DNA of 64,000 nucleotides from an uncultured Methanobrevibacter sp. GTDB taxonomy: Archaea; Methanobacteriota; Methanobacteria; Methanobacteriales; Methanobacteriaceae. Both the position numbers and the translations under genes were made by a program. The notes below the pieces were generated by a model. It did not search any database and was not told where the DNA came from. It worked only from the letters and a program-made list of their open reading frames with translations. The first letter of the stretch is position 1. Each line of letters begins with the position of its first letter. The DNA is taken from NCBI RefSeq assembly GCF_900317865.1, contig NZ_ONIK01000001.1; one strand, given 5' to 3'. Below, piece after piece: positions 35,229-53,224 of this stretch.

Positions 35229-36533
35229 ATGGTAGATAATACAATATTGATTAAAAATGCATCTATTTTAAATCCTGTAAAAGAATTTAAAGGAAAAAAA
35301 GATGTATTAATTAAAAATGATTTAATTTTTGAAATAAATGATGAAATTTCAGATAATAATGTGGATAAGGTCATCGATGCGACTGATAAAATTTTACTTC
35401 CTGGTTTTGTAAATACCCATACTCATTTATCAATGACATTATTTAGGGGTCTTGCAGATGATTTGGCTCTTGATGAATGGTTAAATGATAATATATGGCC
35501 TATGGAAGCTAATCTTAATGAAAATTATTGTTATATTGGTGCTCTTTTAGGAGCAGTTGAATTAATTAAATCCGGAACTACAACATTTTCAGACATGTAC
35601 TTTTACATGGAGGATGTTGCAAAGGCTGTAGAAGAATCAGGAATAAGGGCAGCTTTATCATATGGAATGATAGATTTCGCTGATGAAGAAAAAAGAAAAG
35701 CTGAAATCGAAAAAAATATGAGATTATTTAAGAACTGTCATAATTCAGCTGACGGAAGAATTAAAGTATTTTTCGGACCACATTCACCATACACAGCTTC
35801 TGAAGAACTATTAAAAGAAGTTAGAAAACTGGCTGATGAAAATGATATAAAAATTCACATACATGTCAGTGAAACTCAAAAGGAAATTAATGATATTAGC
35901 TCTGAAAAAGGTCTAAGACCATTTGAATATCTTGATTCCATAGGATTTTTAGGTCCTGATGTTGTATGTGCTCACAGTGTATGGCTAAGTGATGAGGAAA
36001 TCGAAATTATCAAAAAACATGATGTTAAAATTTCACACAATCCATGCAGTAATATGAAATTGGCATCAGGAATAGCTCCTGTATCAAAATTACTTGAAAA
36101 TGATATTTGTGTTGCTATTGGAACTGATGGTGCTTCATCAAATAATAATTTGGATATTATTGAAGAGTTGAAAACTGCCAGTTTATTACAAAAGGTATCA
36201 ACTCTTGATCCAAAGGTTTTAACATCCGATGAAGCAATAGCCATGGGAACTATCAACGGTGCAAAGGCACTTGGTTTGGATGATGAAATTGGAAGCATTG
36301 AAGTTGGTAAAAAAGCAGATTTAATATTGATTGATACCAATAATGCTAATATGGTTCCAGACAGTTCTAAATTAAGTTCAAATGTTATCTATTCTGCAAA
36401 CGGGTCTAATGTAGATACCACTATTTGTAATGGTGTAATATTAATGGAAAATAAGAAATTAACTACATTAGATGAAGATGAAATTTATCAAAAAGCAAAA
36501 GAAGCAATAGATCAGCTTAAAAAAGCTATCTAG
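35229..36533 (+). CDS. mtaD: Amidohydrolase, 5-methylthioadenosine/S-adenosylhomocysteine (5'-deoxyadenosine) deaminase family
   Basis: LLPGFVNTHTHLSMTLFRGLADDLALDEWL, HVSET, GTDGASSNN motifs. Confidence 0.8.
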   Translation: MVDNTILIKNASILNPVKEFKGKKDVLIKNDLIFEINDEISDNNVDKVIDATDKILLPGFVNTHTHLSMTLFRGLADDLALDEWLNDNIWPMEANLNENYCYIGALLGAVELIKSGTTTFSDMYFYMEDVAKAVEESGIRAALSYGMIDFADEEKRKAEIEKNMRLFKNCHNSADGRIKVFFGPHSPYTASEELLKEVRKLADENDIKIHIHVSETQKEINDISSEKGLRPFEYLDSIGFLGPDVVCAHSVWLSDEEIEIIKKHDVKISHNPCSNMKLASGIAPVSKLLENDICVAIGTDGASSNNNLDIIEELKTASLLQKVSTLDPKVLTSDEAIAMGTINGAKALGLDDEIGSIEVGKKADLILIDTNNANMVPDSSKLSSNVIYSANGSNVDTTICNGVILMENKKLTTLDEDEIYQKAKEAIDQLKKAI

Positions 36534-38169
36534 CTTCAAATTTTATTTTATTTTTATTTATTATAATGCTTCTTTTCCAAGCATCTATAGTTTCTGGGAA
36601 ATCGCTTCTAAAGTGCGCTCCTCTACTTTCACGACGTAATATAGCTGATTTTACAATTAATATACAGATTTCAACCATATTAATTACTTCAAGAGCAGTT
36701 AACAATTCAGTATTATATTGATTTTCATCACATACATCCAACTTATCCAAGTCTTTCTGCATTTGCTGTAATTCCCGTAAAGCTTCATTCAATGTTTTTT
36801 CTTCACGTACGATAGCTACTTTTTCCCACATTAATTTTTTGATGTTTTCTTTAAATTCAGAAGCTTTAATTGAACCCGGCTTTATAATACCTTCAATTCT
36901 TTCTTTTTCAGCTAAAAACATTTCATCATTTGTTTTTAGAGAAGTTTCTTTTGCTTTTTTGGCTGCACTTGCACCGGCGATTTTTCCGAATACCTGAGTG
37001 TCAGCAAGAGCATTTCCACCTAGACGGTTGGCTCCATGAACTCCACCACATACTTCTCCACAAGCGAATAAATTCGGAAGTGATGTAGATGCATCAGTAT
37101 TTATTTTAATACCACCCATAAAGTGATGTGCTGTTGGAGCTACTTCTATAGGTTCATTTTTAATGTCAACACCGACATTTCCAAATTGTAGAACCATAGT
37201 CTCTAATTTTTCATCAATCAAATCATCATCCAAGTGAGAAATGTCGAGATATACTCCCCCATGTTCGCTTCCTCTACCTTCAATGATTTCCTGATAAATT
37301 GATCTTGCAACGACATCCCGTGTTGCTAGCTCCATTTTTTCCGGTGAATATTTTTTCATGAAACGTTCACCTTCTTTGTTCAGTAGAATTCCACCTTCGG
37401 CTCTTACAGCCTCAGTCACTAAAACTCCTCTTTTAGATTTTGGACTTACCATTCCTGTAGGGTGAAATTGTACCTGTTCCATATCCACCAGATTTGCACC
37501 TGCTCTGTAAGCTATTGCAAAGCCGTCTCCATTCTTTTGAAAGGTATTGGAAGTTACAGGATATAACTGACCGGCTCCACCGCTTGCGAATATGACAGCT
37601 TTAGCCTTAAAGTAAATTAGACTGGAATCTTTTAGGTCAAACCCTACTGCTCCAATTACTTGAAGACCATCTTGAATGAGTGAAGTTATCATAACTTCTT
37701 CGATACATTCAATATCTCTTTTAATGATTTCTTCCTTTAGTGCATTTAGTAATTCAGCACCAGTACGGTCTCCTTGAAAGCAGGTTCTTCTATAGGTCTG
37801 ACCGCCGAATGGTCTTTGAGCAATTTTGCCGTTTTCCTGTCTGTCAAACAATGCACCATAGTTTTCCAAGTCTATTAGTCTTTTGGGGGATTCTTTGACT
37901 AAAATATCGACTAACTTTTTGTCATTAAGGTAACTTCCACCTTTTAACGTATCTTTGATATGTGCATCAATTGAATCTTCTTTATCGACAGCTTTGAAAA
38001 CAGCATTGTATCCACCTTCTGCCATTCCAGTACAGCCTGACCTAAATGACAGTCCTTTTGATACAATTGTAGCTTTAACTCCAGCATTATCTACTTCAAT
38101 AGCTGCTCTTGAACCAGCCCCTCCTGATCCGACAATCAAAACATCTGTCTCAATTTTCTTTACTTCCAT
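36526..38169 (-). CDS. tfrA: Fumarate reductase/succinate dehydrogenase flavoprotein family; likely thiol:fumarate reductase subunit A
   Basis: DVLIVGSGGAGSRAA, QFHPTG, HFMGGI, RESRGAHFR motifs. The TfrA assignment is inferred from the methanogen context. Confidence 0.7.
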   Translation of the reverse strand: MEVKKIETDVLIVGSGGAGSRAAIEVDNAGVKATIVSKGLSFRSGCTGMAEGGYNAVFKAVDKEDSIDAHIKDTLKGGSYLNDKKLVDILVKESPKRLIDLENYGALFDRQENGKIAQRPFGGQTYRRTCFQGDRTGAELLNALKEEIIKRDIECIEEVMITSLIQDGLQVIGAVGFDLKDSSLIYFKAKAVIFASGGAGQLYPVTSNTFQKNGDGFAIAYRAGANLVDMEQVQFHPTGMVSPKSKRGVLVTEAVRAEGGILLNKEGERFMKKYSPEKMELATRDVVARSIYQEIIEGRGSEHGGVYLDISHLDDDLIDEKLETMVLQFGNVGVDIKNEPIEVAPTAHHFMGGIKINTDASTSLPNLFACGEVCGGVHGANRLGGNALADTQVFGKIAGASAAKKAKETSLKTNDEMFLAEKERIEGIIKPGSIKASEFKENIKKLMWEKVAIVREEKTLNEALRELQQMQKDLDKLDVCDENQYNTELLTALEVINMVEICILIVKSAILRRESRGAHFRSDFPETIDAWKRSIIINKNKIKFEAR

Positions 38170-38263
38170 TTTTATACCTTTCAAAATTTATGTAATTATT
38201 TTTGTTTTTAATAATTAATATAAATATGTAAATAATATAATATCATTATTAAGAGGTAATTTG

Positions 38264-38638
38264 ATGAAACTTTATGGTGAAGTTACAACTGGTTTAGGAA
38301 AAGCGGCTTATTTCCTTTCACAGGATTTTTATGTTGATAATTTTATTAAAAACTGTGGTTTTAAGCCATATCCAGGAACTCTGAATGTTATTGTTCCCGA
38401 TAAACATTTAGACCAAATTAATGAAGTTAAAAATAGTTGTGAAAATATTATCAAACCTGAAGAGGGTTTCGGTGCTGTAAAATATATTAAGGCTACTTTA
38501 AATAATGAAGTTAATGGAGCTATTGTTTTTCCAGCAAAAACTGAACATACTGAAAATTATTTGGAATTTATCGCTGAAAAAAAACTAAGAGATGAACTAA
38601 ATTTAAAAGACGGCGATATTGTAAGTTTAGAATTTTAA
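38264..38638 (+). CDS. ribK: Archaeal CTP-dependent riboflavin kinase
   Basis: GEVTTGLGKAAYFLSQ...YPGTLNV...GAIVFPAKTEH pattern of the MJ0056 family. SD aagaggt. Confidence 0.8.
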   Translation: MKLYGEVTTGLGKAAYFLSQDFYVDNFIKNCGFKPYPGTLNVIVPDKHLDQINEVKNSCENIIKPEEGFGAVKYIKATLNNEVNGAIVFPAKTEHTENYLEFIAEKKLRDELNLKDGDIVSLEF

Positions 38639-38681
38639 ATCAAAAGTATTTTATATAATAATTGATATATTTTTTTATACG

Positions 38682-38800
38682 TTCTCAGGGCGGAGTGAAA
38701 TTCTCCACCGGTGGTGATTTTTATATAAGTCCACGAGCACAAAAAAGTGTTGATTTGGTGAGATTCCAAAACCGACGGTGATAGTCCGGATGGAAGAGAA
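38682..38800 (+). promoter_or_regulatory. FMN riboswitch (RFN element) aptamer
   Basis: uucucAGGGCGGAGUGAAAUUCUCCACCGGUGGU...AGUCCACGAGC...GAUUUGGUGAGAUUCCAAAACCGACGGUGAUAGUCCGGAUGGAAGAGAA reproduces the conserved RFN core, with P1 formed by uucuc/gagaa. Confidence 0.9.
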
Positions 38801-38852
38801 TAAGTAGATTATTTTTTTTAGCCCTGGTTCTAGTACACAAGGAGACATTACT

Positions 38853-39539
38853 ATGAATCAAGAAACAAATTTAGATAAAGCTTTAGAAGCTATTAAAAAT
38901 GGTGAATTCGTTCTAGTTTTTGACGATGATGATAGGGAAGGAGAAGTTGATATGATTATCGCTTCTGAATTTGTAACCCCGAAATCCATTGCTACTATGA
39001 GAAATGATGCCGGTGGTTTAATCTGTAATTGTTTACATGCAGATTTCTGTGATGCTATTCATTTACCATTCATGGTGGATATTATGAAAGCAGCAACTGA
39101 AAAATATCCTGAATTAGCAGAATTGGCACCTACTGACATTCCTTATGATGAAAGATCTTCATTTTCCATATGGACTAACCATAGAAAATCTTTCACAGGT
39201 GTTACAGACCACGACAGAGCAATGACAATTAGTGAAATGGCTAAAATGATGAAAGACGAAAGATTTGATGAATTTGGTGCAACATTTAGATCACCAGGTC
39301 ATGTTTGTCTTTTAAGAGGAGCAGATGGTCTTGTAAAAAACAGAAGAGGACACACTGAAATCGGTCTTGCATTATGTGAGATGGCAGGTGTTACTCCGGT
39401 TTGTGTAGTTTGTGAAATGATGGATGGTGAAACTGGACAAGCTACTTCAATTGCTGATGCTCGTAAATATGCTGAAGAAAATGGATTAGTCTTGCTTAGA
39501 GGCGAAGACATCATAAATAAATATTTAGATGAATACTAA
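38853..39539 (+). CDS. ribB: 3,4-dihydroxy-2-butanone-4-phosphate synthase (archaeal type)
   Basis: FVLVFDDDDREGEVDMIIASEFVTPKSIATMRNDAGGLICNCL...GHTE. SD aaggaga 7 nt upstream. Confidence 0.9.
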   Translation: MNQETNLDKALEAIKNGEFVLVFDDDDREGEVDMIIASEFVTPKSIATMRNDAGGLICNCLHADFCDAIHLPFMVDIMKAATEKYPELAELAPTDIPYDERSSFSIWTNHRKSFTGVTDHDRAMTISEMAKMMKDERFDEFGATFRSPGHVCLLRGADGLVKNRRGHTEIGLALCEMAGVTPVCVVCEMMDGETGQATSIADARKYAEENGLVLLRGEDIINKYLDEY

Positions 39540-39961
39540 CTATACATGTTAGTATTATCCATCCTTTTATTTTGAATATAGTTAATTATAAATTGAGTAA
39601 TCTGTTGTATCTTGTATGAATTATAAATGCTGAATACAACATATTTTCCGTCATGCATTCCTATTTTTAAACCGTCACGTATTTCTTTTGTAGGTTCTAC
39701 TTGAGATATTTTGTCCCATGTAATTCTCAATGTTTTACTTTTAAGGGCTTTTTCAAAATGGATTCCATCATCCATTATTTTAACTTTTTTAACTACACGG
39801 CGGTTTTTTGGAGAAGCTATTTGAATATCTCCATTTTCATCAAATACATAATCAGGAATTAAACAAGTTGCTTTCCAGCCCTGTTTTATTTTTTTTGCTA
39901 CCTGATGCCTATCTTTTTTTGTTAATTTAACACCTTGTTCCGGGCTTAAGTTAAGAGCCAT
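39536..39961 (-). CDS. Hypothetical basic protein (141 aa), translationally coupled to the upstream amidotransferase-like gene
   Basis: Its start overlaps the stop of the 39961-41451 gene. No recognisable motif. Confidence 0.45.
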   Translation of the reverse strand: MALNLSPEQGVKLTKKDRHQVAKKIKQGWKATCLIPDYVFDENGDIQIASPKNRRVVKKVKIMDDGIHFEKALKSKTLRITWDKISQVEPTKEIRDGLKIGMHDGKYVVFSIYNSYKIQQITQFIINYIQNKRMDNTNMYS

Positions 39962-41728: not shown

Positions 41729-44700
41729 ATGAAATTTAAAAGAATAATTTTAATTTCATTGATTCTGTGTGTTTTATCAATTGCTTGTGTGTCAGCTAGT
41801 GACAATCAAACATCCGCAGATAATCTGCAAATCAATGATATAAATGCTAATGTAATTAATGATGAAATAAATGAGTATACTAATGATACGAATGATATAA
41901 AAGGAAATACCTCTGATGAAAGGAGTGTTGTCTTTGATGAAGTACTTTCTAGCAGCAATTCTGATGATAAGTTATCCGCTCCAAAAGAAGGAACACGTGA
42001 TGAATTGAATAATTTGATTATTGCTGCAAAACCAGGCTCAACTGTAACCTTGGATAAGGATTATAGTTTTGAAAGTGATGTGAAAAGTGTTGAGATAACA
42101 AAAAATATTGTAATTGACGGTAAGGGACATACTATTTATCCAGGATATAATCCTGTTTTTGATTTTAAGCATAACACCCCTAGTGGAAAGATAGAAATAA
42201 AAAATATCACTTTTGTACGTGGAATTGGCAGTGCAATTCATTTTAATGAAGAATCTTGTCCTTTTATAATTTCCAATTGTAGATTTATAAACTGTTCTTC
42301 CCAAATTGGAGGCGCAATCGCAGGGGCGGCAAAATATACCTCAAATATTATTAATTGCAGTTTTAAAGGATGCCATGGTATGGGTGAATCCAAGGTTGTT
42401 AGAAAGGAAACATTTAACAGTGCTTCATCTAGCGCATTCAGTAACGGCGGTGCAATATACATGTCCGGTTCCGTTAATGTTAAATCCTGTAGATTTGAAG
42501 GCTGTTCTGCTGGAAACGGCGGTGCGATAGAGGCATATGGCAACTTTCAAATAATAGATTGTGTTTTTGTTAAAAATAAGGCCGGAAGAATTGATTCTTT
42601 TAACTCTTTAGAACATGGAGGTGCCATTCGTATTCATGGTGGATCTGGCGCTTTAATTAAGGGATGTACATTCAATGAAAATCATGCCGGACATTATGGG
42701 GGTGCAATATCATCATACGGCAATAATGTCAGAATTGAAGATAATGTTTTTAATTCCAATTACATAGATAATAGCATAAGAAGAGAAGGGGGAGCAATAT
42801 TTGTAGGTAGGGACTCCAAGATTGGTGACACACCTATTCAAATAACCCGTTGTGTATTCAATAATAATGGATATAACAACAATAACCATTACTGTAAATA
42901 TGGTGGAGCAATATATTTCAGTGATGGAATTATTTCAGGAACTGTTTCATATTGTAATTTTACAGGTAATGGTGCATCAAAAGAGGGTGGTGCAATATAT
43001 GCCTCATCCGATTGTAAATTCATTACTTTTAAAGGATGTGCGTTCACCAAAAATCAGGTTGAGAAATATGGCGGAGCCATATATCTTGATTCTAAATCTT
43101 CAACCATAGTGGATTGTGCATTTGTCGAACAGCCGAATGCAATATATTGTGATAATAAGGGATGCAGTGTTAAATTCTCCGCATTTTTAAATAACGGAAA
43201 TTATAATGTCTGGTCTACTAAAGAGATAAATATTGCAAACAATTGGTTTGGAAATACTATGGATAACAGGTTTTACGATTTTTCTAAACTCAAAGGCAAA
43301 GCAGTCAACCTTAATAATGCGGAAAATCTATATCTAGTTGCCACATCCATGGATAAAAACTACCACAATGGACAGGAATCTACCGTTAATTTAAACTTTA
43401 GATATATGCGTGACGAACCTACATCCTACAACAAATTACCTCCATTCAACAATCCTGCGATTAGTTATACTGTCAGTGGAGTAAATGCAGCTGTAACTTC
43501 CAAAAATAATTATCTGGCTAACGGCAAATCAAGTTTTAAATTCGTAGCAGATGCTTCTAAAAGCTCATCCTCTCTTACAGTAAATTGTCATGGTGCAAAA
43601 CTGACTTTAAAGTTTAAGATAAAACCAAATTCGTTCACTGCACTTCAAGCAGCGATTGACAGCTGTCAAAATGGAGTTTTAAATCTGACTCATAATTATA
43701 CTCGTGACAAATCTATCGACGGTGACATGACCGTAACTATTTCAAAAGACCTTGTGATTAATGGTAACGGTTTTACTTTGGATTCAAAAAATAGTGGCGG
43801 AGTATTTTTTATGAGTAGCCGTCCTAATGTGGACATAAATAATTTGAACATTGTTAATAGTAAATCAAAGTGGGGTTCGGCCATTTGGGGTTATATAAAT
43901 AATATGTCAATCAATAACTGCAGGTTCATTAATTGTTCAGCAAAATTTGAGGGAGGTGCGATTAACCTGGTTGGAAAAGTGCTTACAATAACCAATTCCA
44001 CTTTCATTAACAATACTGCTGATGAAAATGGGGGCTCTTTGATTGTAACGGGTATCAATACTGTAATTAGGGATTGCATTTTCATTAATTCCAATTCTGG
44101 TATGGAAGGATGTTTCATTTATCTTCACGCTAGCAGCAGATTAAATCTCACAGATTCCATATTGTTAACCAATTCAACATCAAAATATATTTCTAAACCA
44201 GAGGGTGAATCACTACGGTGGAATATTTCAGCTAACATTGAGAACAATTGGTTTAGCGGTACAAATGACGATATCTTAAAGAATTATGACAGAATCAATG
44301 ATTTCAAAGTCAAAAGTCTGCTTTATCTAAATGTCGCACCATCTTTGTATGATATTCCTATGGGAAACACATCAAAAATCAGCCTTAAATTTTATTCATA
44401 TGATGTGAACTCAAGACGTAGCACTGCCTTAACCAGCTTCAGAAACATGAAATTTAACGTCAAATTGTTGAAGGAGGGAGGAAGACTCAGTTCCAATTCA
44501 ATAATATTAAACAATAATGAAGGAAATGTGGTTTATATTTCAAGCTCTAATGGCATAATGCCTGTTGAATTTAACTATGAATTATTCAGCCATAGAATTT
44601 ATCTTAATCAGTACGGTGATAATTCTTTCACCGCCCTTCAATATTTGATTAATAATTCAGGAAATGTCATAAACCTCACTAAGGATTATACTTTTTCAAA

Positions 44701-47700
44701 TATTTCCGATTATAAACTGTTTGATGGCGTTTATATTAATAAAGATTTAACAATTAATGGTAAGGGCCATATTCTCAGCGGTAGTGGACAGGCCAGAATC
44801 TTTAATATAGGCGGACATACAGTTGTTTTAAACAATATCACATTCATTAAGGGTAAAGCTGATGATGGTGGTGCAATTTTCGCTTCCCCTACATCTTCCT
44901 TGTCTATCGATTCATGCAGATTCGAAAACAATACTGCCAAAAACGGCGGTGCGATTTATCTTAAATATTTCAAAAGCATAATCATGGAGTCATCTTTCTT
45001 CAAAAACAATTCCGCCACTGCAACAGGCGGCGCAATCTATTATTATGGAAACTATGGAAATAAGGAATTGTTCGACATAACAGGCACTTTCATAAATAAC
45101 CGAGCCGGTGTGGATGGAGGTGCGATATATGAACATGATATTGCGAATTATCGCCTAAAAGGTAATTTCACAAACAATACTGCCGGAAGAAATGGTGGTG
45201 CGGTCTGTTCAGATTCAGTTTTTGTCATTGGAACGATTTCCATTGACGGCATTTTCGATTCAAATGCGGCTGCTTTTGGTGGTGCTGTTTATAGTTTCAA
45301 TCCATTCGGAAACTTCACAGGCATCTACCAGAATAACAGGGCATCTCAGGATGGAGGTGCAATTTACATGGTCAGAAGTTCTGTAAGATATGGAATGCCT
45401 AACACCATCAGCGGCGAATTCTATTCCAACACTGCAAAAGGCCAAGGAAGTGCAGTCTGTGCAATGAATCTCAGTGATAAGGATGTGGATTTACATGATT
45501 CCATTTTCATGAAAAATAGTGGAAAATCCACGCTATATTCATCAGGTTATGCCTATCTTAATGTTCATGACTCCATTTTTGTTGAAAATCATGATGATAA
45601 AGTACTCGACACATCTAAGGATTATGCTGTTGACGGTCGTCTGAAAGCTTATAATAACTGGTTCGGCCATACGGTTGATAATTTTGATAAAAAGCCTTCT
45701 GTCGGTGAAAGAGTAATATTGAATGACTGGCTGTATGTAGATGTGGATTACGGTAAAACAGAAACCGATCTTAAATCTAAAAATAACATTATTTTTACAT
45801 TGAAATCATATGACGCTAAAAAAGAAAAAGTTTCAGATTATACTGGCAACTTTAAACTTAATTTAAGCTTAAAATCAGATAGCGGCAACTTCAGTACCAA
45901 TTCCTTTATTTTAGACAATGCCCCTGTTAAAGTTACATATGTTCCAAACAAATATGATGAAAATACTGTTGTTGTTTGGGCAAATCTATCAAAATATTCC
46001 CATAAGACATACGAAATTAAATATAATGTAGTTGAGCATCCTAGCGATTCATTTTATGCATTACAATATGAAATAGATCATATGAAAGGAAATGTCCTTA
46101 ACTTAACTAATAATTATGAGTTCTATCCGGAAAGTGATACTCCAAATGGAGTAAAAGTAAATAAATCCATAACCATCAACGGGAATGGATTTGCCATTGA
46201 CGGTAAAGGAAGCTCCAACATATTCAATATTTCAGCTGACAATGTTGTTTTGGAAAATATCTCCCTAATCAACGGTAATGACATTAACGGCAGCGCAATA
46301 TACGCTGAAGGAAACAATATCATAATAAGGAATTCCATTTTATTGAATAACACTGATGTGGTTATCTATGCCACAAAATCATTAACTGCAAATTACAACT
46401 GGTGGGGAAATACTGCAGACACTTTCAATAAAAAAGCCAATGTCAGCAGCAATGTTATTTTAGATAATGCACTCTTTGCAACATTCAATGCCAAATCAAC
46501 TGTTATCGGTGCCGGAAATAACACAACAGTTGTTTTAAACTTAACCAATTTATACAACTTCTCTACAAAAACAAATTCAACATATGATGGACTTAACTTA
46601 TTTACATTTGACTTCAATGCTGAAGATGGAAAGGTTAATAAAACTTCAGATAAACTCAATAAAGGAATAATTAACGTTTCATTTGAAGTAATAGGTCCAC
46701 TTTACGCTGATATTTATGCCAAATATAAAAATGTGGTGTTAAACTATACATTTGAAGTAGTTTATGATGATGATTCATTCACCGCATTATATGCTTTGAT
46801 TAACAAAACAGCACCTAATGGCATTCTTAATCTGGAACATGACTATAAATTTTATTACTATGATGCGGATTATATTGAAGGCATTCCAATAGATAAGGCA
46901 ATTACCATTAATGGAAATGGATTTAATGTTAATGGAACAGGTGAATCCTGTGTATTTGTTGTATCTGCAGACAATGTCTTTCTGAGAAATATTAATATTT
47001 ATGATTCATTAGATGCTATCGAATGGCTTGGAAACAATGGATTAATAAACAATATCACAGTCAATAACAGTAACAGTTCATTAAATGCCTTTGGTTCAAA
47101 TCTGGTTATAAGGAATTCAAATTTCACTCATGCCAGCAGATATTCACTATATCTTGAAGGTTCAAATAATGTTGTTGACAACTGCAGATTTGTGGACAAT
47201 TCAGGTCCTTCAATAATTGGACTCAGCATGAACAATTTAACAATTGAAAATTCAACATTTAAAAATATTAACAGTCCAATTTCAGGAATCGTTGAAATAA
47301 TAGATTGTAAAGATGCAAATATCTCCAGCTGCATATTCAATAATCAAAATAACCAATCCATAATGATTTTAGAAGGTTCAACCGTTTATTTAAACAATAA
47401 TACTCTCTCAAAATCAGATTACATCTATAACTATGGTACTATTCTTTCAAAGACATATGCTCGCATGAACAAACTTAATTCAAGTTACATGGTCGACACC
47501 GAAATTTTATTAAACGCAACAATATACGACGATAACAATAATATCATATTAGTTGATGAGTTTTATTTCAAAATTGGAGAAAAACCCGCTAAGGCCAAAC
47601 TGAATAATACTGCATATGAATATAAATGGACATCAACAAATGGAACTTGGATTGTTATGCCCGACATAAACAAAACATCATTTAAAAACTGCGAGGTTGA

Positions 47701-50700
47701 TTCCGCAACAGTTAACGTGCTGAAATATAATTCATCCGTTATAATTACAGGCATTAGAGACATAATTTATGGTGAAGATGCAAACATAGAATTCGAGTTT
47801 AAAAACAGTACTGCAGTTTTAGTTACAGTGCTTCTTAACTCTGATGTGGTATTCAATGAAACCACAAATAAGACTAACATTATCATTCATGATTTGAAAA
47901 CCGGATTATATACTGTAATAATCAGCACTTTAGAAACTGGACGTTATCAATCCAGTAACGCTACTTCCGATTTAAGAGTCAACAGAGCAGGATCTTCATT
48001 GACTCTTGAAGCAATAGTTGATACCTATTACGGAAAAGATTTAATCATAAACTTCACTGTTGAAAATAGAACTGTCGTTACTGCTACAATTTATGATATT
48101 AATACCGGAAAATATGTTTTCAACGATATTGTTGAAGGCAATTTATTAGTCTTGAATAATTTGACTGTAGGTTCATACTCAATAACATTAAATAATCTCA
48201 TTAACCCAAATTACAATCCTAGCGGAGATTATTCTACATTCAATGTTTTAAAAGTCAATTCCACAATCAATATGGATGATGAAACAGAATATGTTTATGA
48301 CAATGTTACAATCAAGTATAATGTTGATAATTTAACCGATATCCTGGTTGCTGTCATTGATTTGGAAAGTGGTGACATATATAATTTCACAACCACAAAC
48401 TCAAGCATTAATCTTGATTTGGATGCAGGATCATACCAAATCACATTAGTCAATATGGAAACCGAAAACGTTTTCTCAAGCGAAGATTCAAAAACAATCA
48501 CTGTCCTACCTGCAAACACCTCAGTTAAAATAGATGACATAGACAATGTCCATTATGGAGAAGATGTTGAAATCATTTTTGATGTAATCAATGCTACAAA
48601 TGTCACAGTCATAGTAAAAAATGAAAAGAATGTCATTATTTATCAAAACAATACAAATGAAAGCTACATATATCTTTCAGATTTAAATGTAGGCAAATAT
48701 AGCGTGGAAGTTTATAATTCAGCGACCAATAATTTCAAGCCTAGCAATGACACAAAAACATTTAACGTATTAAAAGCAGGATCATTTATTGAAATCGAGT
48801 ATGATAATTTAACAACCTACGGAATACCATTCAAATTGGACTATGATGTGGAAAACGAAACACTTTTAAACATCCGCATTTATGATTCCAAAGGAAATAT
48901 CGTTTATGACAAAAATTTCGATGAAATTAGTGAACTTCCAGATGATATGAGTAATCTGACCGAAGAAGCTTATTTAGGTTACTATTTCTTTATTCATAGA
49001 AACTTAACAGTCGGAAAATATACATTTGAATTAAGAAATTTAGATACATCCAATGTAATCGGATATCTGGTTAACGGCAGTTTTGAAATTATAAAAACCA
49101 CATCCGAAATTGAAGTCTATGTAGAAGATATTGTATACGGTGAAGATTTAGAAATCCATATCGGCGTTATCAATACCACAATCGTCAATATTAAAATAAA
49201 AGACTATAAAGGCAGCATTGTTTATAATGATAATGTTACCAGTTCCCCAATCATAATCAGAAATTGGATTCCGGGCAATTATACTGTTATCGTTACAAAC
49301 CTTGATACAGAAAACATTATTGGAAATTCATCATCACAGGACTTCCAAGTCTTTAAAATCAATTCCACCATCAAATTAAACGACATATCAGACATTTATT
49401 ATGAAGATAATATTTCAATTAGTTTTGATGTTGAAAATAAAACTATTGTAAATATCAGGATTCAAAATCAGGATGGTGAAGTAGTTTATGACAATAACGT
49501 CACATCAGACACGATTATAGTTCCTAATTTGGATGCTGGAAACTACACAGTAACCGTTACAAATCTAGAAACATTCAATATTACCAAAAGCAGCGATTCC
49601 AAATCATTCAGAGTTTTAAAAAGAAACATCAACATTACAGTAACCGTTGAAAATAACATATATGGTGAGCCAACTGTCATTAATGTATACTCCGATATTG
49701 ACGGCACATTCCCGGTTATTATAGGCACACAACAAGTCCTTGTTAGTGTAAAAAATGGTTACGGAAAAAACACAACCAAACTTGATGCAGGAAATTACAT
49801 TGCTTATGTCAATTATACAAACGACAATTATAATATCAACATGACCAACAGCTCATTTATTGTATCTAAAGCAGACATTTCTTTAAGAATTGAAGTTTCA
49901 GATAAAGTATACACAGCTGATGTAACAGGCAAGGTATTTGCAAGTGTTGACGGTGAATATAGCGTTGTCATTAACGGCAATACAATTCCAGTAACTGTTA
50001 AAAACGGCTCAGGAGAATTTAATTTAGGCATATTAAAAACCGGAAATTACACAATTACAGTGATTTATAACGGAACTGACAATTATAAAGCCAATACCAA
50101 CAAAACTACATTTAAAGTTAGTAAAAGCGAAACTAACTTCAACATAAAAACGGATGCCAACAACATAACTTACGGAGACTCCTTAAAAATCACCCAAACA
50201 CTCCCAGGTGATGCAACAGGTACCATAACCTACACATACGCCAATGGAACCATAATAAAAGTTATCAAAGTTGGTGAATCATTTGTTTTATCCAACTTGG
50301 ATGCAGGATCTTATGTAATTTATGGATATTACTCCGGTGATTCCAATTACAAATCCGCCAGAGATAGTCTGACAATAACTGTCAATAAAGCCATGAACAA
50401 TATAATCGTATCTGGTGAAAATACAGTATATCCAGAAAACTCAACAATCAAAGTCATAGCAGATATTGATGGAGAATATACCGTTATTATTTCAGCTAAT
50501 AAAATCATTGTAAATGTAATTAATGGTGTTGGAATCGGTTCAATTTCTTTAGATGCAGGAAAATACATCGCAAATATCAAATACACAAACAAAAATTATG
50601 AAAACAATATCAAAAGCATAGCATTCAATGTTGCCAAGGCCAATATTACCTTAAGCGTTGAAGTCTTAGATAAGGTTTACACAGAGGATGTAGATGGTAA

Positions 50701-53224
50701 TGTATTTGCAAGTGTTGACGGGGACTATATTGTTGTCATCGGAGATACTTCAAAACTTGTCTCTGTTAAAAACGGTATTGGTGAATTTAATTTAGGCATA
50801 TTAAAAACCGGAAATTATAAGATTTCTGTGATTTTTAATGGAAATGAGAACTATAACAGTAATTTCAAAACAACATCATTTAAAGTAACAGAAACAGGTA
50901 CTAACTTCAATATAATTGCTAACAACACACACATCACTTACGGTGAAGACGTTAAAATAACACAAAAACTCCCAAGTGATGCAACAGGTACTATAACATA
51001 TATATTTGCCAATGGGACTGTTATTAATATTATCAAAGTTGGTGAATCATTTGTTTTATCCAACTTGGATGCAGGATCTTATGTAATTTATGGATATTAC
51101 TCTGGTGATTCCAATTACAAATCCGCCAGAGATAGTCTCACAATAACTGTCAATAAAGCTATAAATAACATAATAGTCTCTAGTGAAAATACTGTATATC
51201 CAGAAAAATCAACAATCAAAGTTAAAGCAGATATTGATGGAGAATATACCGTTATTATTTCAGGTAAAAAAATTATTGTCAATGTAATAAATGGTATCGG
51301 AACCAGCTCAATTTCTTTAGATGCAGGAAAATACATTGCAAATATTGAATACACAAACAAAAATTATGAAAACAACATCAAAAGCATAGCATTCAATGTA
51401 GCTAAAGCAGATGTTGTATTAAGCGTTGAAGTTTTAGATAAAGTATATACAGAAGATGTAGGCGGTAACGTATTTGCAAGTGTTGATGGTGAATATAACA
51501 TCATCATTAATGGCAATACAATTCTAGTAACTGTTAAAAATGGTATCGGCGAATTTAATTTAGGTATATTAAAAGCCGGAGATTATAGCATTTCTGTTAT
51601 TTATTACGGAAATAAAAACTACAATAGTAATTACAATACAACATCATTTAAAGTAACAGAAACAGGTACTAACTTCAATATAATTGCTAACAACACACAC
51701 ATCACTTACGGCGAAGACGTTAAAATAACACAAAAACTCCCAAGTGATGCAACAGGTACTATAACATATATATTTGCCAATGGAACTGTTATTAAAGTTA
51801 TTAAAGTTGGTGAATCATTTGTTTTATCCAACTTGGATGCAGGATCTTATGTAATTTATGGATATTACTCCGGTGATTCCAATTATAAATCCGCCAAAGA
51901 TAGTTTAACCATTGTTGTTAATCCTAAAGGCAAAGAAAATGCTACAATTAGCATTGATGCTCCTAAAGTAACGGAAGGTGAAAATGTTACAATTACTGTA
52001 AATTTACCTGCTGATGCAACAGGCAGTGTAATTGCCACTGTCAACGGCAAAACATATGTTGCTCCTGTAGAAAAGGGTACTGCCATAATTACAATACCAG
52101 AATTAGATGCGGGCAACTATGTAATACCTGTATACTACTCTGGTGACGACAAATACAATTCACAAAGCAAAAATGCAAATGTTACTGTTGAAGAAGATAA
52201 ATCAGACATTATCTCTGCTCCGGACGTAACAAAATACTTCCACGGACCAGAAAGATTTATCATAACTGTAACAGATTATAAAGGTAATCCTTTAGCAAAC
52301 AAAACAGTTAAACTCACTATAAACGGTGTTGAATACACTAGAACAACAAATGCGCATGGAATTACAAGTATTGCAATAAACTTACAAAGTAACCACTATG
52401 ATGCAATCGTAACAGTCGATAATAAAACTATTAAGTCAGTTATCATTGTTTTACCTACTGTAAAAGGAACTGATCTTGTTAAAGTATTCAGAAATGCTAC
52501 CCAATACTATGCAACATTCCTTGACAGTCAAGGAAATTACCTTAGAGAAGGAAGTGTTGTCAGATTCAACATTAATGGTGTAATGTATGAGCGTATTGTA
52601 TCCGGCGATAAAGGTCTTGCAAAATTAAACATCAATCTCGAGCAAGGTGAATATATAATCACTGCAATGAATCTTGAAACTGGTGAAATGGCATCAAATA
52701 AGATTACCGTTATTCCAAGAATCATAGAAAATAATGATTTAATCAAATATTATAGAAATGCTTCACAATACACTGTTAAATTAATTGGTGACGACGGTAA
52801 TCCTGTAGGTGCGGGTGAAGAAGTAACATTCAACATCAATGGAGTGTTCTACACACGCACAACTAACGAATTTGGTATTGCAAAATTAAACATCAACTTA
52901 GAACCAGGACAATACATAATTACAGCAGAATACAACGGATGTAAAGTTTCAAACTTAATTACAGTATTGCCAGTATTAACTGCCCAAGACCTTTCAATGA
53001 AATATCATGATGGAAGCAAATTCTTTGCAACACTTGTTGATGGCCAGGGAAAACCTTATGCGAATCAAAAAATACAATACAACATAAATGGTGTCTTTTA
53101 TAATCGTCCAACTGATAATAATGGTCAAAGCGCATTAAATATCAATTTAAAGCCTGGAGAATACATCATAACTTCAAGCTATGATGAATGCTATATTTCA
53201 AACAAAATAACTATTTCAAGTTGA
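41729..53224 (+). CDS. Giant adhesin-like protein (ALP3, 3831 aa): signal peptide, five beta-helix supermodules, a long Ig-like repeat region, 4 C-terminal conserved modules
   Basis: MKFKRIILISLILCVLSIACVSA. Recurrent SFTALQ..I....G.LNLT.(N/D)Y...ING(N/K)G and GGAI(Y/F) beta-helix motifs. Uninterrupted 11.5-kb ORF. Confidence 0.9.
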   Translation: MKFKRIILISLILCVLSIACVSASDNQTSADNLQINDINANVINDEINEYTNDTNDIKGNTSDERSVVFDEVLSSSNSDDKLSAPKEGTRDELNNLIIAAKPGSTVTLDKDYSFESDVKSVEITKNIVIDGKGHTIYPGYNPVFDFKHNTPSGKIEIKNITFVRGIGSAIHFNEESCPFIISNCRFINCSSQIGGAIAGAAKYTSNIINCSFKGCHGMGESKVVRKETFNSASSSAFSNGGAIYMSGSVNVKSCRFEGCSAGNGGAIEAYGNFQIIDCVFVKNKAGRIDSFNSLEHGGAIRIHGGSGALIKGCTFNENHAGHYGGAISSYGNNVRIEDNVFNSNYIDNSIRREGGAIFVGRDSKIGDTPIQITRCVFNNNGYNNNNHYCKYGGAIYFSDGIISGTVSYCNFTGNGASKEGGAIYASSDCKFITFKGCAFTKNQVEKYGGAIYLDSKSSTIVDCAFVEQPNAIYCDNKGCSVKFSAFLNNGNYNVWSTKEINIANNWFGNTMDNRFYDFSKLKGKAVNLNNAENLYLVATSMDKNYHNGQESTVNLNFRYMRDEPTSYNKLPPFNNPAISYTVSGVNAAVTSKNNYLANGKSSFKFVADASKSSSSLTVNCHGAKLTLKFKIKPNSFTALQAAIDSCQNGVLNLTHNYTRDKSIDGDMTVTISKDLVINGNGFTLDSKNSGGVFFMSSRPNVDINNLNIVNSKSKWGSAIWGYINNMSINNCRFINCSAKFEGGAINLVGKVLTITNSTFINNTADENGGSLIVTGINTVIRDCIFINSNSGMEGCFIYLHASSRLNLTDSILLTNSTSKYISKPEGESLRWNISANIENNWFSGTNDDILKNYDRINDFKVKSLLYLNVAPSLYDIPMGNTSKISLKFYSYDVNSRRSTALTSFRNMKFNVKLLKEGGRLSSNSIILNNNEGNVVYISSSNGIMPVEFNYELFSHRIYLNQYGDNSFTALQYLINNSGNVINLTKDYTFSNISDYKLFDGVYINKDLTINGKGHILSGSGQARIFNIGGHTVVLNNITFIKGKADDGGAIFASPTSSLSIDSCRFENNTAKNGGAIYLKYFKSIIMESSFFKNNSATATGGAIYYYGNYGNKELFDITGTFINNRAGVDGGAIYEHDIANYRLKGNFTNNTAGRNGGAVCSDSVFVIGTISIDGIFDSNAAAFGGAVYSFNPFGNFTGIYQNNRASQDGGAIYMVRSSVRYGMPNTISGEFYSNTAKGQGSAVCAMNLSDKDVDLHDSIFMKNSGKSTLYSSGYAYLNVHDSIFVENHDDKVLDTSKDYAVDGRLKAYNNWFGHTVDNFDKKPSVGERVILNDWLYVDVDYGKTETDLKSKNNIIFTLKSYDAKKEKVSDYTGNFKLNLSLKSDSGNFSTNSFILDNAPVKVTYVPNKYDENTVVVWANLSKYSHKTYEIKYNVVEHPSDSFYALQYEIDHMKGNVLNLTNNYEFYPESDTPNGVKVNKSITINGNGFAIDGKGSSNIFNISADNVVLENISLINGNDINGSAIYAEGNNIIIRNSILLNNTDVVIYATKSLTANYNWWGNTADTFNKKANVSSNVILDNALFATFNAKSTVIGAGNNTTVVLNLTNLYNFSTKTNSTYDGLNLFTFDFNAEDGKVNKTSDKLNKGIINVSFEVIGPLYADIYAKYKNVVLNYTFEVVYDDDSFTALYALINKTAPNGILNLEHDYKFYYYDADYIEGIPIDKAITINGNGFNVNGTGESCVFVVSADNVFLRNINIYDSLDAIEWLGNNGLINNITVNNSNSSLNAFGSNLVIRNSNFTHASRYSLYLEGSNNVVDNCRFVDNSGPSIIGLSMNNLTIENSTFKNINSPISGIVEIIDCKDANISSCIFNNQNNQSIMILEGSTVYLNNNTLSKSDYIYNYGTILSKTYARMNKLNSSYMVDTEILLNATIYDDNNNIILVDEFYFKIGEKPAKAKLNNTAYEYKWTSTNGTWIVMPDINKTSFKNCEVDSATVNVLKYNSSVIITGIRDIIYGEDANIEFEFKNSTAVLVTVLLNSDVVFNETTNKTNIIIHDLKTGLYTVIISTLETGRYQSSNATSDLRVNRAGSSLTLEAIVDTYYGKDLIINFTVENRTVVTATIYDINTGKYVFNDIVEGNLLVLNNLTVGSYSITLNNLINPNYNPSGDYSTFNVLKVNSTINMDDETEYVYDNVTIKYNVDNLTDILVAVIDLESGDIYNFTTTNSSINLDLDAGSYQITLVNMETENVFSSEDSKTITVLPANTSVKIDDIDNVHYGEDVEIIFDVINATNVTVIVKNEKNVIIYQNNTNESYIYLSDLNVGKYSVEVYNSATNNFKPSNDTKTFNVLKAGSFIEIEYDNLTTYGIPFKLDYDVENETLLNIRIYDSKGNIVYDKNFDEISELPDDMSNLTEEAYLGYYFFIHRNLTVGKYTFELRNLDTSNVIGYLVNGSFEIIKTTSEIEVYVEDIVYGEDLEIHIGVINTTIVNIKIKDYKGSIVYNDNVTSSPIIIRNWIPGNYTVIVTNLDTENIIGNSSSQDFQVFKINSTIKLNDISDIYYEDNISISFDVENKTIVNIRIQNQDGEVVYDNNVTSDTIIVPNLDAGNYTVTVTNLETFNITKSSDSKSFRVLKRNINITVTVENNIYGEPTVINVYSDIDGTFPVIIGTQQVLVSVKNGYGKNTTKLDAGNYIAYVNYTNDNYNINMTNSSFIVSKADISLRIEVSDKVYTADVTGKVFASVDGEYSVVINGNTIPVTVKNGSGEFNLGILKTGNYTITVIYNGTDNYKANTNKTTFKVSKSETNFNIKTDANNITYGDSLKITQTLPGDATGTITYTYANGTIIKVIKVGESFVLSNLDAGSYVIYGYYSGDSNYKSARDSLTITVNKAMNNIIVSGENTVYPENSTIKVIADIDGEYTVIISANKIIVNVINGVGIGSISLDAGKYIANIKYTNKNYENNIKSIAFNVAKANITLSVEVLDKVYTEDVDGNVFASVDGDYIVVIGDTSKLVSVKNGIGEFNLGILKTGNYKISVIFNGNENYNSNFKTTSFKVTETGTNFNIIANNTHITYGEDVKITQKLPSDATGTITYIFANGTVINIIKVGESFVLSNLDAGSYVIYGYYSGDSNYKSARDSLTITVNKAINNIIVSSENTVYPEKSTIKVKADIDGEYTVIISGKKIIVNVINGIGTSSISLDAGKYIANIEYTNKNYENNIKSIAFNVAKADVVLSVEVLDKVYTEDVGGNVFASVDGEYNIIINGNTILVTVKNGIGEFNLGILKAGDYSISVIYYGNKNYNSNYNTTSFKVTETGTNFNIIANNTHITYGEDVKITQKLPSDATGTITYIFANGTVIKVIKVGESFVLSNLDAGSYVIYGYYSGDSNYKSAKDSLTIVVNPKGKENATISIDAPKVTEGENVTITVNLPADATGSVIATVNGKTYVAPVEKGTAIITIPELDAGNYVIPVYYSGDDKYNSQSKNANVTVEEDKSDIISAPDVTKYFHGPERFIITVTDYKGNPLANKTVKLTINGVEYTRTTNAHGITSIAINLQSNHYDAIVTVDNKTIKSVIIVLPTVKGTDLVKVFRNATQYYATFLDSQGNYLREGSVVRFNINGVMYERIVSGDKGLAKLNINLEQGEYIITAMNLETGEMASNKITVIPRIIENNDLIKYYRNASQYTVKLIGDDGNPVGAGEEVTFNINGVFYTRTTNEFGIAKLNINLEPGQYIITAEYNGCKVSNLITVLPVLTAQDLSMKYHDGSKFFATLVDGQGKPYANQKIQYNINGVFYNRPTDNNGQSALNINLKPGEYIITSSYDECYISNKITISS
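49868..51925 (+). repeat. Near-identical 768-bp (256-aa) tandem array, about 2.7 copies, inside ALP3
   Basis: Unit starts at 49868, 50636 and 51404. Long stretches are identical between units (for example ggtgaatcatttgttttatccaacttggatgcaggatcttatgtaatttatggatattac). The shadow ORFs at 50347, 51115 and 51883 are also spaced 768 bp. Confidence 0.9.

Follow-up and report, generated by a model that had tools for sequence, protein, structure and literature searches.

A flavin mononucleotide riboswitch between ribK and ribB in Methanobrevibacter: a leader homologous to that of enterobacterial ribB, probably grafted onto an archaeal-type gene

The 64,000-nt stretch of DNA analysed here (the window; contig NZ_ONIK01000001.1 of assembly GCF_900317865.1, from an uncultured Methanobrevibacter sp.) carries on its plus strand two adjacent riboflavin genes, ribK and ribB, and between them a flavin mononucleotide (FMN) riboswitch. 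The upstream gene, ribK (38261–38638), encodes the CTP-dependent riboflavin kinase that makes the ligand FMN, and the downstream one, ribB (38853–39539), presumably the regulated gene, encodes an archaeal-type 3,4-dihydroxy-2-butanone 4-phosphate (DHBP) synthase; the ribK stop codon ends at 38638 and the ribB ATG begins at 38853, which leaves a spacer of 214 nt. We regard it as probable that the leader in this spacer is a xenologue of the enterobacterial-type ribB leader, transcribed from a BRE/TATA (TFB recognition element and TATA box) promoter of its own, that it turns ribB translation off, and that it was later grafted onto the archaeal ribB. An earlier note on this DNA, made by a model from the letters and their open reading frames (ORFs), had placed an archaeal-lineage ribB beside an archaeal CTP-dependent ribK, and domain searches support both assignments. 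RibB matches PF00926 and TIGR00506, and among solved structures its best match is the Methanocaldococcus jannaschii enzyme (1PVW, 300 bits), bacterial RibB reaching at most 86 bits; its nearest homologues are those of Methanobrevibacter, followed by Methanocaldococcus at 57–59% identity, and the closest genomes are rumen Methanobrevibacter metagenome-assembled genomes (MAGs) with RibB 98–99% identical. PF01982 spans residues 8–124 of the 125-aa RibK, while the model of the kinase fused to a winged helix-turn-helix (wHTH; NF010762) aligns at model positions 91–215, the kinase half, only. RibK thus has the kinase domain alone, with no wHTH at its N-terminus, and is not the regulator RbkR. The locus resembles RbkR systems in its presumed FMN-status feedback on archaeal riboflavin genes and in having a ribK homologue adjacent, but RbkR is a wHTH DNA-binding protein, whereas here an RNA would hold the regulatory role. 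In the pathway, ribB is the flavin-specific step, the pyrimidine branch being common to F420 synthesis.

The aptamer occupies 38677–38805 (+), where cmscan with Rfam 15 matches the FMN family RF00050 at 113.1 bits (gathering score 66.2, E = 1.5e-25, model positions 1–138), the sole gathering-level Rfam match across the whole window. The earlier note had called this RFN (FMN) element by eye, and the score places the call well above the family threshold. Helices P1 to P6 are all present as a full six-helix junction; the consensus has 66 strongly conserved positions, of which the window copy matches 61 and departs at five, four of these making up two compensatory pairs, and 35 of the 36 conserved unpaired positions are identical. 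Taken with pairing across 75 species (below), this makes the element a genuine member of the FMN riboswitch family, far beyond chance. P1 pairs 38681–86 with 38796–801. Its 5′ strand, together with J1/2 (AGGGC), lies at 38681–38692 according to the cmscan structure line and its pairing with 38821–27, and the purine-rich J6/1 with the P1 3′ strand, GAAGAGAAUAA, lies at 38793–38803, where minimum-free-energy (MFE) folds pair it either with the P1 5′ strand or with a downstream U-run. The aptamer ends 47 nt from the ribB ATG on the same strand, and in our genome and metagenome scans ribB was the downstream gene for every archaeal-type aptamer match that reached it. The shorter motifs that had been picked out by eye are all in place: uucuc (38682–86) and gagaa (38796–800) of P1, cagggc (38686–91), T8 (38812–19), gccctg (38821–26), and the Shine–Dalgarno (SD) sequence aaggaga (38839–45) ahead of the ATG at 38853.

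The same conserved positions bear on the ligand. Methanogens hold high F420 pools, ribB stands at the flavin/deazaflavin branch point, and bacterial variants of FMN riboswitches with altered specificity exist (PMC5473149), so that one might imagine specificity shifted to an F420- or Fo-related deazaflavin or to another flavin-like methanogen ligand. We consider such a shift very improbable, as the conserved unpaired positions fit the FMN consensus at all but one site and the aptamer is 91–94% identical to those preceding bacterial-type ribB and resembles ordinary gut-bacterial FMN aptamers.

To place the window copy among its relatives we fetched 80 species-representative loci around ribB, including MAGs labelled M. 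thaueri and M. millerae; loci are designated by L numbers. The spread among related genomes that the earlier note had allowed for is indeed wide: an aptamer stands upstream of ribB in about 75 of the 80 species representatives (74 by nhmmer, with two further loci, L019 and L051, cut by contig ends), and divergent copies are confirmed by cmscan at 107–118 bits. In the resulting alignment of 75 leaders (A2), 93% of aptamer pair cells are canonical, compared with 36–50% when the partners are slid against each other. One P2 pair switches between G-C (48 species) and A-U (27), and one P4 pair between A-U (70) and U-A (two), while many other pairs are invariant and so uninformative on compensatory change. 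Junction nucleotides are invariant over the 75 species, linkers vary, and the elements of the expression platform are conserved as strongly as the aptamer.

The exceptions are instructive. The aptamer is missing from loci whose ribK and ribB touch or overlap (L078, L080 and Methanobinarius L085), as well as from M. cuticularis, M. curvatus and a Methanobrevibacter from bioreactor and other metagenomes (L083/L084). In these last loci the ribK–ribB spacer of about 300 nt (L083:2198–2500, and L084) is extremely AT-rich, with tandem TTAGATATTAAAA-like units and no Rfam match. In a rabbit-gut Methanobrevibacter MAG (L079, 2840–2945) we find a decayed aptamer in which many conserved G/C positions are now A/T; it gives no cmscan match at E ≤ 0.01, and the promoter block and the MNQ start of RibB are still there, so at least one lineage has lost its riboswitch through mutation. 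In another MAG (RUG11674; L017, 2898–2950), P3–P6 are cleanly deleted between two CCGG repeats (ACCGG|GATGG), with promoter, P1/P2, U-run, GCCCUG and sequestering stem retained, which would mean either that the allele has naturally lost sensing or that the assembly is wrong here. Such losses within the clade lend some weight to the view that the aptamer is a non-regulating evolutionary relic in a constitutive 5′ untranslated region. For the window copy we think this highly improbable: it scores 113 bits with 61 of 66 conserved positions intact, junctions stay invariant over 75 species while linkers vary, compensatory changes keep the helices, and the platform is as conserved as the aptamer. 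That about 75 of 80 species retain the aptamer, its helices kept by compensatory changes, points to selection on it, and the contrast with L079 and L017, which show what loss looks like, argues that the window copy is itself maintained by selection.

Downstream of P1 the 75 leaders share a common plan, in which a variable linker of 9–20 nt is followed by a U-run and then by the nearly invariant AGCCCUGGUUCUAG. In the window the U-run, UUAUUUUUUUU, spans 38809–38819 (with T8 at 38812–19), and the GCCCUGG strand, which we term the anti-P1 (anti-aptamer) strand, follows at 38821–38827, complementary to 38685–38691. The earlier note had proposed an alternative pairing between cagggc and gccctg, and this is real: UCAGGGC (38685–91) and GCCCUGG (38821–27) are 97.7% paired over the 75 species, with covariation at one position (C-G in 56, U-G in nine, U-A in three) and at another (A-U in 60, G-U in 13), and RNAalifold independently picks this helix as the closing one of the consensus fold. 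The conserved U-run would form the 3′ strand of a second helix, as GAAGAGAAUAA is predicted to pair with it over at least 6 bp in 64 of 75 free-state MFE folds (median per-nt pairing probability 0.79); this hairpin consists of A-U and G-U pairs only, on which covariation is silent.

What the first reading of the sequence had overlooked is the output module, a sequestering stem in which the 5′ arm UGGUUCUAGUA (38825–38835; E. coli homologue CUGAUUCUGGUAA) pairs with the 3′ arm UACUAUGAAUCA (38849–38860), which holds the start codon (38853–55). The A and G of the AUG are paired, the U is bulged, and the SD sequence AAGGAGA (38839–38845), whose GGAG is conserved in the 75 leaders, sits in the loop. 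The stem is present in 71 of 75 folds and 98% paired, though almost invariant; single-sided changes, as in L008 and L074, retain pairing, and the duplex is calculated at -9.9 kcal/mol against -3.1 ± 1.8 for shuffles. Two other arrangements were considered and set aside. Masking of the SD by GCCCUG has no support in the window lineage, in which no more than 3 bp could form, though in L206 and L208 it could occur (CCUGA with UCAGG), and a pseudoknot in which a platform GUUCU would replace the P1 5′ strand was dropped as unsupported.

This architecture is that of the E. coli ribB leader. By RNase H probing of nascent E. coli transcripts, the OFF state consists of P1 and a sequestering stem, and the ON state of an anti-P1 and an anti*-P1 helix, the latter using the P1 3′ strand; FMN is sensed co-transcriptionally, within a window bordered by pause sites (PMC11571811). 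The helices that we had predicted before this model was known to us map onto it one to one, the U-run hairpin standing as an analogue of anti*-P1, and the folding calculations agree. We fetched the E. coli leader, annotated in RefSeq as an FMN riboswitch, and aligned it with the archaeal leaders. It reads GCCCUGAUUCUGGUAAC, then 17 nt, then UUUUUUACCAUGAAUCAG, with the short 3′ form UUACCAUGAAUCAG; the archaeal leader L104 has GCCCUGAUUCUAGUAAC and UUUACUAUGAAUCAUG, the short 3′ form in archaeal leaders being UUACUAUGAAUCA, and the window leader has GCCCUGGUUCUAGUACA and CAUUACUAUGAAUCAAG. E. coli and archaeal leaders share the GCCCUG anti-P1 strand, both sequestering arms, the bulged U of the AUG and the ATG AAT CAR (MNQ) start. 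Within the sequestering stem E. coli and L104 match at 16 of 17 and 12 of 13 nt (the window leader at slightly fewer), and the single pair that differs there does so by compensation, reading G-C in E. coli (cuGGuaa/uuaCCau) and A-U in archaea (cuAGuaa/uuaCUau). The alignment thus indicates that the whole leader, beyond the aptamer alone, is homologous to the enterobacterial ribB leader.

The likeness extends to the aptamer family, to a predicted FMN-free helix that would use the P1 3′ strand, and, within the 64 kb analysed, to ribB being the sole regulated gene of the pathway. The differences lie in the archaeal host, the putative BRE/TATA promoter, and an archaeal-type DHBP synthase that follows about five presumably grafted codons. 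The linker is also shorter (21 nt in the window, 66 in E. coli ribB), and the partner of the P1 3′ strand in the window is the oligo-U run directly 5′ of GCCCUG, which is not homologous to the E. coli partner. The aptamers are 76% identical, too distant for E. coli itself to have been the donor. With B. subtilis ribD-type RFN elements the window leader shares the aptamer, the OFF logic and a U-rich tract past the aptamer, and kinetic co-transcriptional sensing is to be expected in both, but it lacks a GC-rich terminator hairpin 5′ of the U-run: a scan of 38200–39700 for intrinsic (bacterial GC-hairpin) terminators found no site, and the sole hairpin ending in the U-run is built of A-U and G-U pairs, with the run as one of its strands. 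The classical terminator form does occur in a human-gut bacterial relative, L088 (GCCCUGUAGC...GCUAUGGGGCUUUUUU). This locus and some 40 similar metagenome loci come from a bacterium that is very common in the human gut, and across the 36-nt search pattern their aptamer core does not differ from the archaeal one; in loci of this type the terminator reads GCCCTGTAGC...GCTATGGGGCTTTTTT, with GCCCUG as its 5′ arm, and the downstream gene starts MEAINNV....

By homology to the experimentally studied E. coli ribB switch and from our folding calculations we infer that the leader binds FMN and most likely acts as an FMN-dependent translational OFF switch. When FMN is bound during transcription, P1 (38681–86/38796–801) would close and leave the downstream strand (U-run, GCCCUGG and UGGUUCUAGUA) free; the 3′ part of this strand would then form the sequestering stem with UACUAUGAAUCA, and with its start codon paired ribB would not be translated. 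When FMN is absent, the downstream strand would invade the aptamer, GCCCUGG pairing with UCAGGGC (part of the P1 5′ strand and J1/2) as anti-P1 and the U-run pairing with the purine-rich P1 3′ strand as an anti*-P1-like helix; together these would dismantle the binding pocket and shorten the sequestering stem, so that ribB is translated. Such a switch would be portable between domains, since SD-dependent initiation is common to Bacteria and methanogens.

Folding energies are consistent with this scheme. Because the accessibility of the SD and AUG did not separate bound from free states, an AUG hairpin being present in both, we adopted the energy needed to open the ribosome-binding site, which is 8.9 kcal/mol with the aptamer locked and 5.5 with it free. 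The mean rise on locking is 3.45 kcal/mol, at least 1 kcal/mol in 71 of 75 leaders, while for shuffled platforms the difference is -0.26 ± 1.7 and 0.5% of them reach the native value. Among divergent lineages, in which the GCCCUG–AUG spacer ranges from 26 to 55 nt, complementarity of the sequestering arms beats shuffles significantly in 10 of 14.

Several observations nevertheless weigh against translational control. The per-nucleotide accessibility of the AUG barely shifts between states (0.36 vs 0.34), thermodynamic ensembles keep a 9-bp form of the start-codon hairpin when FMN is absent, and the states are therefore separated by the opening-energy measure only. Complementarity of the sequestering arms is weak in the M. 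smithii-like leader L070, in L106, which has a local hairpin in its place, and in two of three tested Methanosphaera leaders (L145, L097). With the stem almost invariant in the 75 species, it is chiefly the alignment with E. coli that supplies its covariation. By nearest-neighbour energies the aptamer fold is some 19 kcal/mol less stable than the alternative fold, so that control would have to be kinetic, as in E. coli. Finally, a purely translational model does not require a conserved U-run.

That U-run invites a different account of the output. A run of at least five U lies directly 5′ of GCCCUG in 73 of the 75 leaders (T5 in 58, T8 in the window), and the pair of U-run and GCCCUG recurs in Methanosphaera and in leaders of bacterial-type ribB, in contrast to E. 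coli, which has no U-run there. The main output could accordingly be transcriptional, with U5–U8 serving as an archaeal terminator or pause site, either as intrinsic oligo-T or recognized by aCPSF1/FttA: bound FMN would leave the run single-stranded and bring premature termination or cleavage, whereas without FMN the P1 3′ strand would hide it and allow read-through, and such control could act alongside translational control. The presence of the run in both genera, always beside GCCCUG, is in keeping with this, as is its greater exposure when the aptamer is locked (unpaired 0.44 per nt, against 0.20 free). In the window, moreover, T-runs are about threefold rarer than A-runs in coding sense strands, with only two runs of T8 or longer in 56 kb, and T-runs of six or more follow 11 of 44 stop codons. 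The protein aCPSF1 binds terminator U-tracts specifically (PMC8716108), and in E. coli ribB Rho-dependent termination forms a second layer through which FMN lowers the mRNA (PMC11571811; see also PMC5499598).

Other points speak against termination, and we rate a mainly transcriptional output as rather unlikely. Most relatives have only T5, a run found at 2.6 per kb within genes, and L072 has T4 and L076 no run at all. In leaders of bacterial-type ribB the run lies 65–130 nt from the aptamer yet still touches GCCCUG, as befits a structural role. GCCCUG and the sequestering arms are transcribed after the run and would hence be superfluous for an intrinsic termination decision, and no mechanism is known by which an upstream helix would act on archaeal termination that needs no hairpin. 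That the run stays next to GCCCUG even so far from the aptamer fits its being part of the strand that invades P1. Of the oligo-T termination platform suggested in the earlier note, the T8 run stands, but it is better explained as the FMN-free partner of the P1 3′ strand; 38809–38819 may also act as an archaeal pause or termination signal. To our knowledge Archaea have no Rho, and the mRNA-level arm of the E. coli switch must therefore be absent here or replaced. We hold it as a tentative, somewhat doubtful possibility that the U-run is its archaeal substitute, FMN exposing the U-tract as an intrinsic or aCPSF1/FttA-dependent terminator or pause that the FMN-free fold hides. If so, the locus would provide the first example from nature of an archaeal transcript terminated under ligand control, and a model of the rewiring that bacterial riboswitches undergo once they have moved into another domain.

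How a bacterial type of leader came to precede an archaeal gene is suggested by those relatives in which the gene itself is bacterial. In Methanosphaera, a like leader with U-run, GCCCUG and the start AUGAAUCA precedes a bacterial RibB (scoring 311 bits against the Salmonella/E. coli structures and 88 against RibB of M. jannaschii); at one such locus (L145:9672–10951) crcB, a fluoride channel gene on the same strand, comes directly after the bacterial-type ribB that the riboswitch precedes, an odd pairing that may be co-transcribed. Within Methanobrevibacter, homologous leaders with the same start stand before bacterial-type RibB in L206–L210, L104, L118 and L141, and the bacterial-type RibB behind archaeal leaders score 302–311 bits to the Salmonella/E. 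coli structures. The neighbourhood of L206–L210 is that of the window (cbiA, ribK, riboswitch-ribB, tfrA, amidohydrolase), with no archaeal ribB between ribK and cbiA. The aptamers of bacterial-type-ribB leaders are 81–94% identical to that of the window, their linkers reaching 65–130 nt in the Methanobrevibacter versions. Aptamers before both ribB types within Methanobrevibacter are 91–94% identical, as close as archaeal-type ones are among themselves, those of Methanosphaera are 81–87% identical to the window, and pattern-selected bacterial ones 79–86%. These last come from a metagenome scan with a fixed P5–P6 pattern, which returned archaeal and bacterial leaders; as the fixed pattern biases any identification of a donor, the scan indicates only that gut bacteria carry very similar aptamers.

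The start of RibB carries a further trace. In Methanobrevibacter without the riboswitch, RibB begins ML(K/N/D)KAL, and in the window it begins MNQETN-LDKAL, so that comparison of RibB starts marks ATG AAT CAA GAA ACA AAT (38853–38870; MNQETN) as putatively grafted codons; TTACTATGAATCAAGAA is shared without a difference by the window and the leader that precedes bacterial-type ribB in L141, and the E. coli ribB start is ATGAATCAG. A bacterial-type ribB with its leader would first have entered gut Methanobacteriaceae, and the leader with about five codons, which help to form the 3′ arm of the sequestering stem, would then have been grafted in frame onto the native archaeal ribB, 3′ of ribK. We consider such a graft probable, and the reverse direction less likely, given that the bacterial enzyme natively begins with MNQ. 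The earlier note had asked whether only the RNA had been transferred from gut bacteria; since a homologous leader precedes bacterial-type ribB in relatives, the RNA most likely came with that gene.

A bacterial RNA in archaeal DNA might, in principle, reflect an assembly or binning artefact in which a bacterial fragment was joined to archaeal sequence, and one related contig (L071) is indeed labelled Bacteroidaceae. We judge an artefact extremely improbable, however, as the same arrangement recurs on about 75 independent assemblies with archaeal genes on both sides (histone, TfrA, RibK, RibB), and L071 itself has Methanobrevibacter genes. That contig (CAVDAS010000003.1, deposited as 'Bacteroidaceae bacterium') carries M. 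smithii-like ribK, riboswitch, archaeal-type ribB, cbiA and tfrA, and was probably mis-binned.

The leader also appears to have its own start of transcription. A putative BRE/TATA archaeal promoter, caaaagtATTTTATATA (38641–38657, +), recognizable from the known consensus and from block conservation and apparently dedicated to the ribB leader, includes the block AAAGTATTTTATA(T/C), which is nearly invariant in the 75 leaders even where other genes are inserted between ribK and the leader; in the window this block lies at 38643–56, about 24–28 nt 5′ of the aptamer start, so transcription would begin near 38677–81. Between the inferred TATA box and the aptamer, 32 nt past the ribK stop, runs a T7 tract (38670–38676) that is missing from most relatives, and it may mark the end of the ribK transcript just before the ribB leader starts.

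The wider neighbourhood includes genes for an archaeal histone, TfrA and a CbiA-like amidotransferase. An amidohydrolase gene (35229–36533, +) and tfrA (36526–38184, -) are convergent, their 3′ ends sharing 8 nt (36526–36533). Between ribB and cbiA lies a 141-aa ORF (39536–39961, -) without a Pfam or NCBIfam match, which is kept at the same place in most related loci at 59–100% identity. Farther downstream, a 3831-aa ORF (41729–53224, +) with long internal repeats and an N-terminal signal-like segment is similar to the giant adhesin-like surface proteins typical of Methanobrevibacter.

The Infernal tutorial reportedly lists an FMN match in the M. ruminantium genome, and RefSeq, through its Prokaryotic Genome Annotation Pipeline (PGAP), presumably annotates the FMN riboswitch in archaeal genomes too. 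The family call itself is routine annotation. Its novelty, which the earlier note had drawn from the view that RFN is essentially bacterial, was overstated: while Rodionova and colleagues describe FMN riboswitches as restricted to Bacteria (Rodionova et al., 2017; PMC5397151), their occasional occurrence in Archaea had already been stated, in one sentence, by McCown and colleagues (McCown et al., 2017; PMC5473149). In the literature searched we met with no account devoted to an FMN riboswitch of Methanobrevibacter or Methanosphaera, although 'Riboswitches in Archaea' (Gupta & Swati, 2019) may list one. As far as we can tell, what is new is that the platform is homologous to the enterobacterial ribB leader, that the leader was probably grafted onto an archaeal-type enzyme, and that the U-run is archaeal-specific. 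Archaeal fluoride and thiamine pyrophosphate (TPP) riboswitches are likewise bacterial-type classes found in Archaea, with different ligands, and the expression-platform mechanisms of archaeal riboswitches are poorly known (PMC5473149; PMC4247193); unlike theirs, the platform described here can be traced to an experimentally studied bacterial homologue.

With natural archaeal riboswitch mechanisms almost uncharacterized, the ribB locus is unusually tractable, since its platform can be set against the experimentally dissected E. coli ribB switch one element at a time, from which clear mutational predictions follow. It offers a natural case in which a bacterial RNA switch has to operate in the absence of Rho, on a transcript made by archaeal RNA polymerase from an archaeal promoter and read by archaeal ribosomes, and it suggests an evolutionary route: the regulatory RNA was probably brought in by a bacterial gene and, with that gene's first codons (part of its sequestering stem), later joined to the resident archaeal isozyme. 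Methanobrevibacter dominates methanogenesis in the rumen and the human gut, and a flavin-sensing RNA that governs its riboflavin supply would be a conceivable target for roseoflavin-type compounds.

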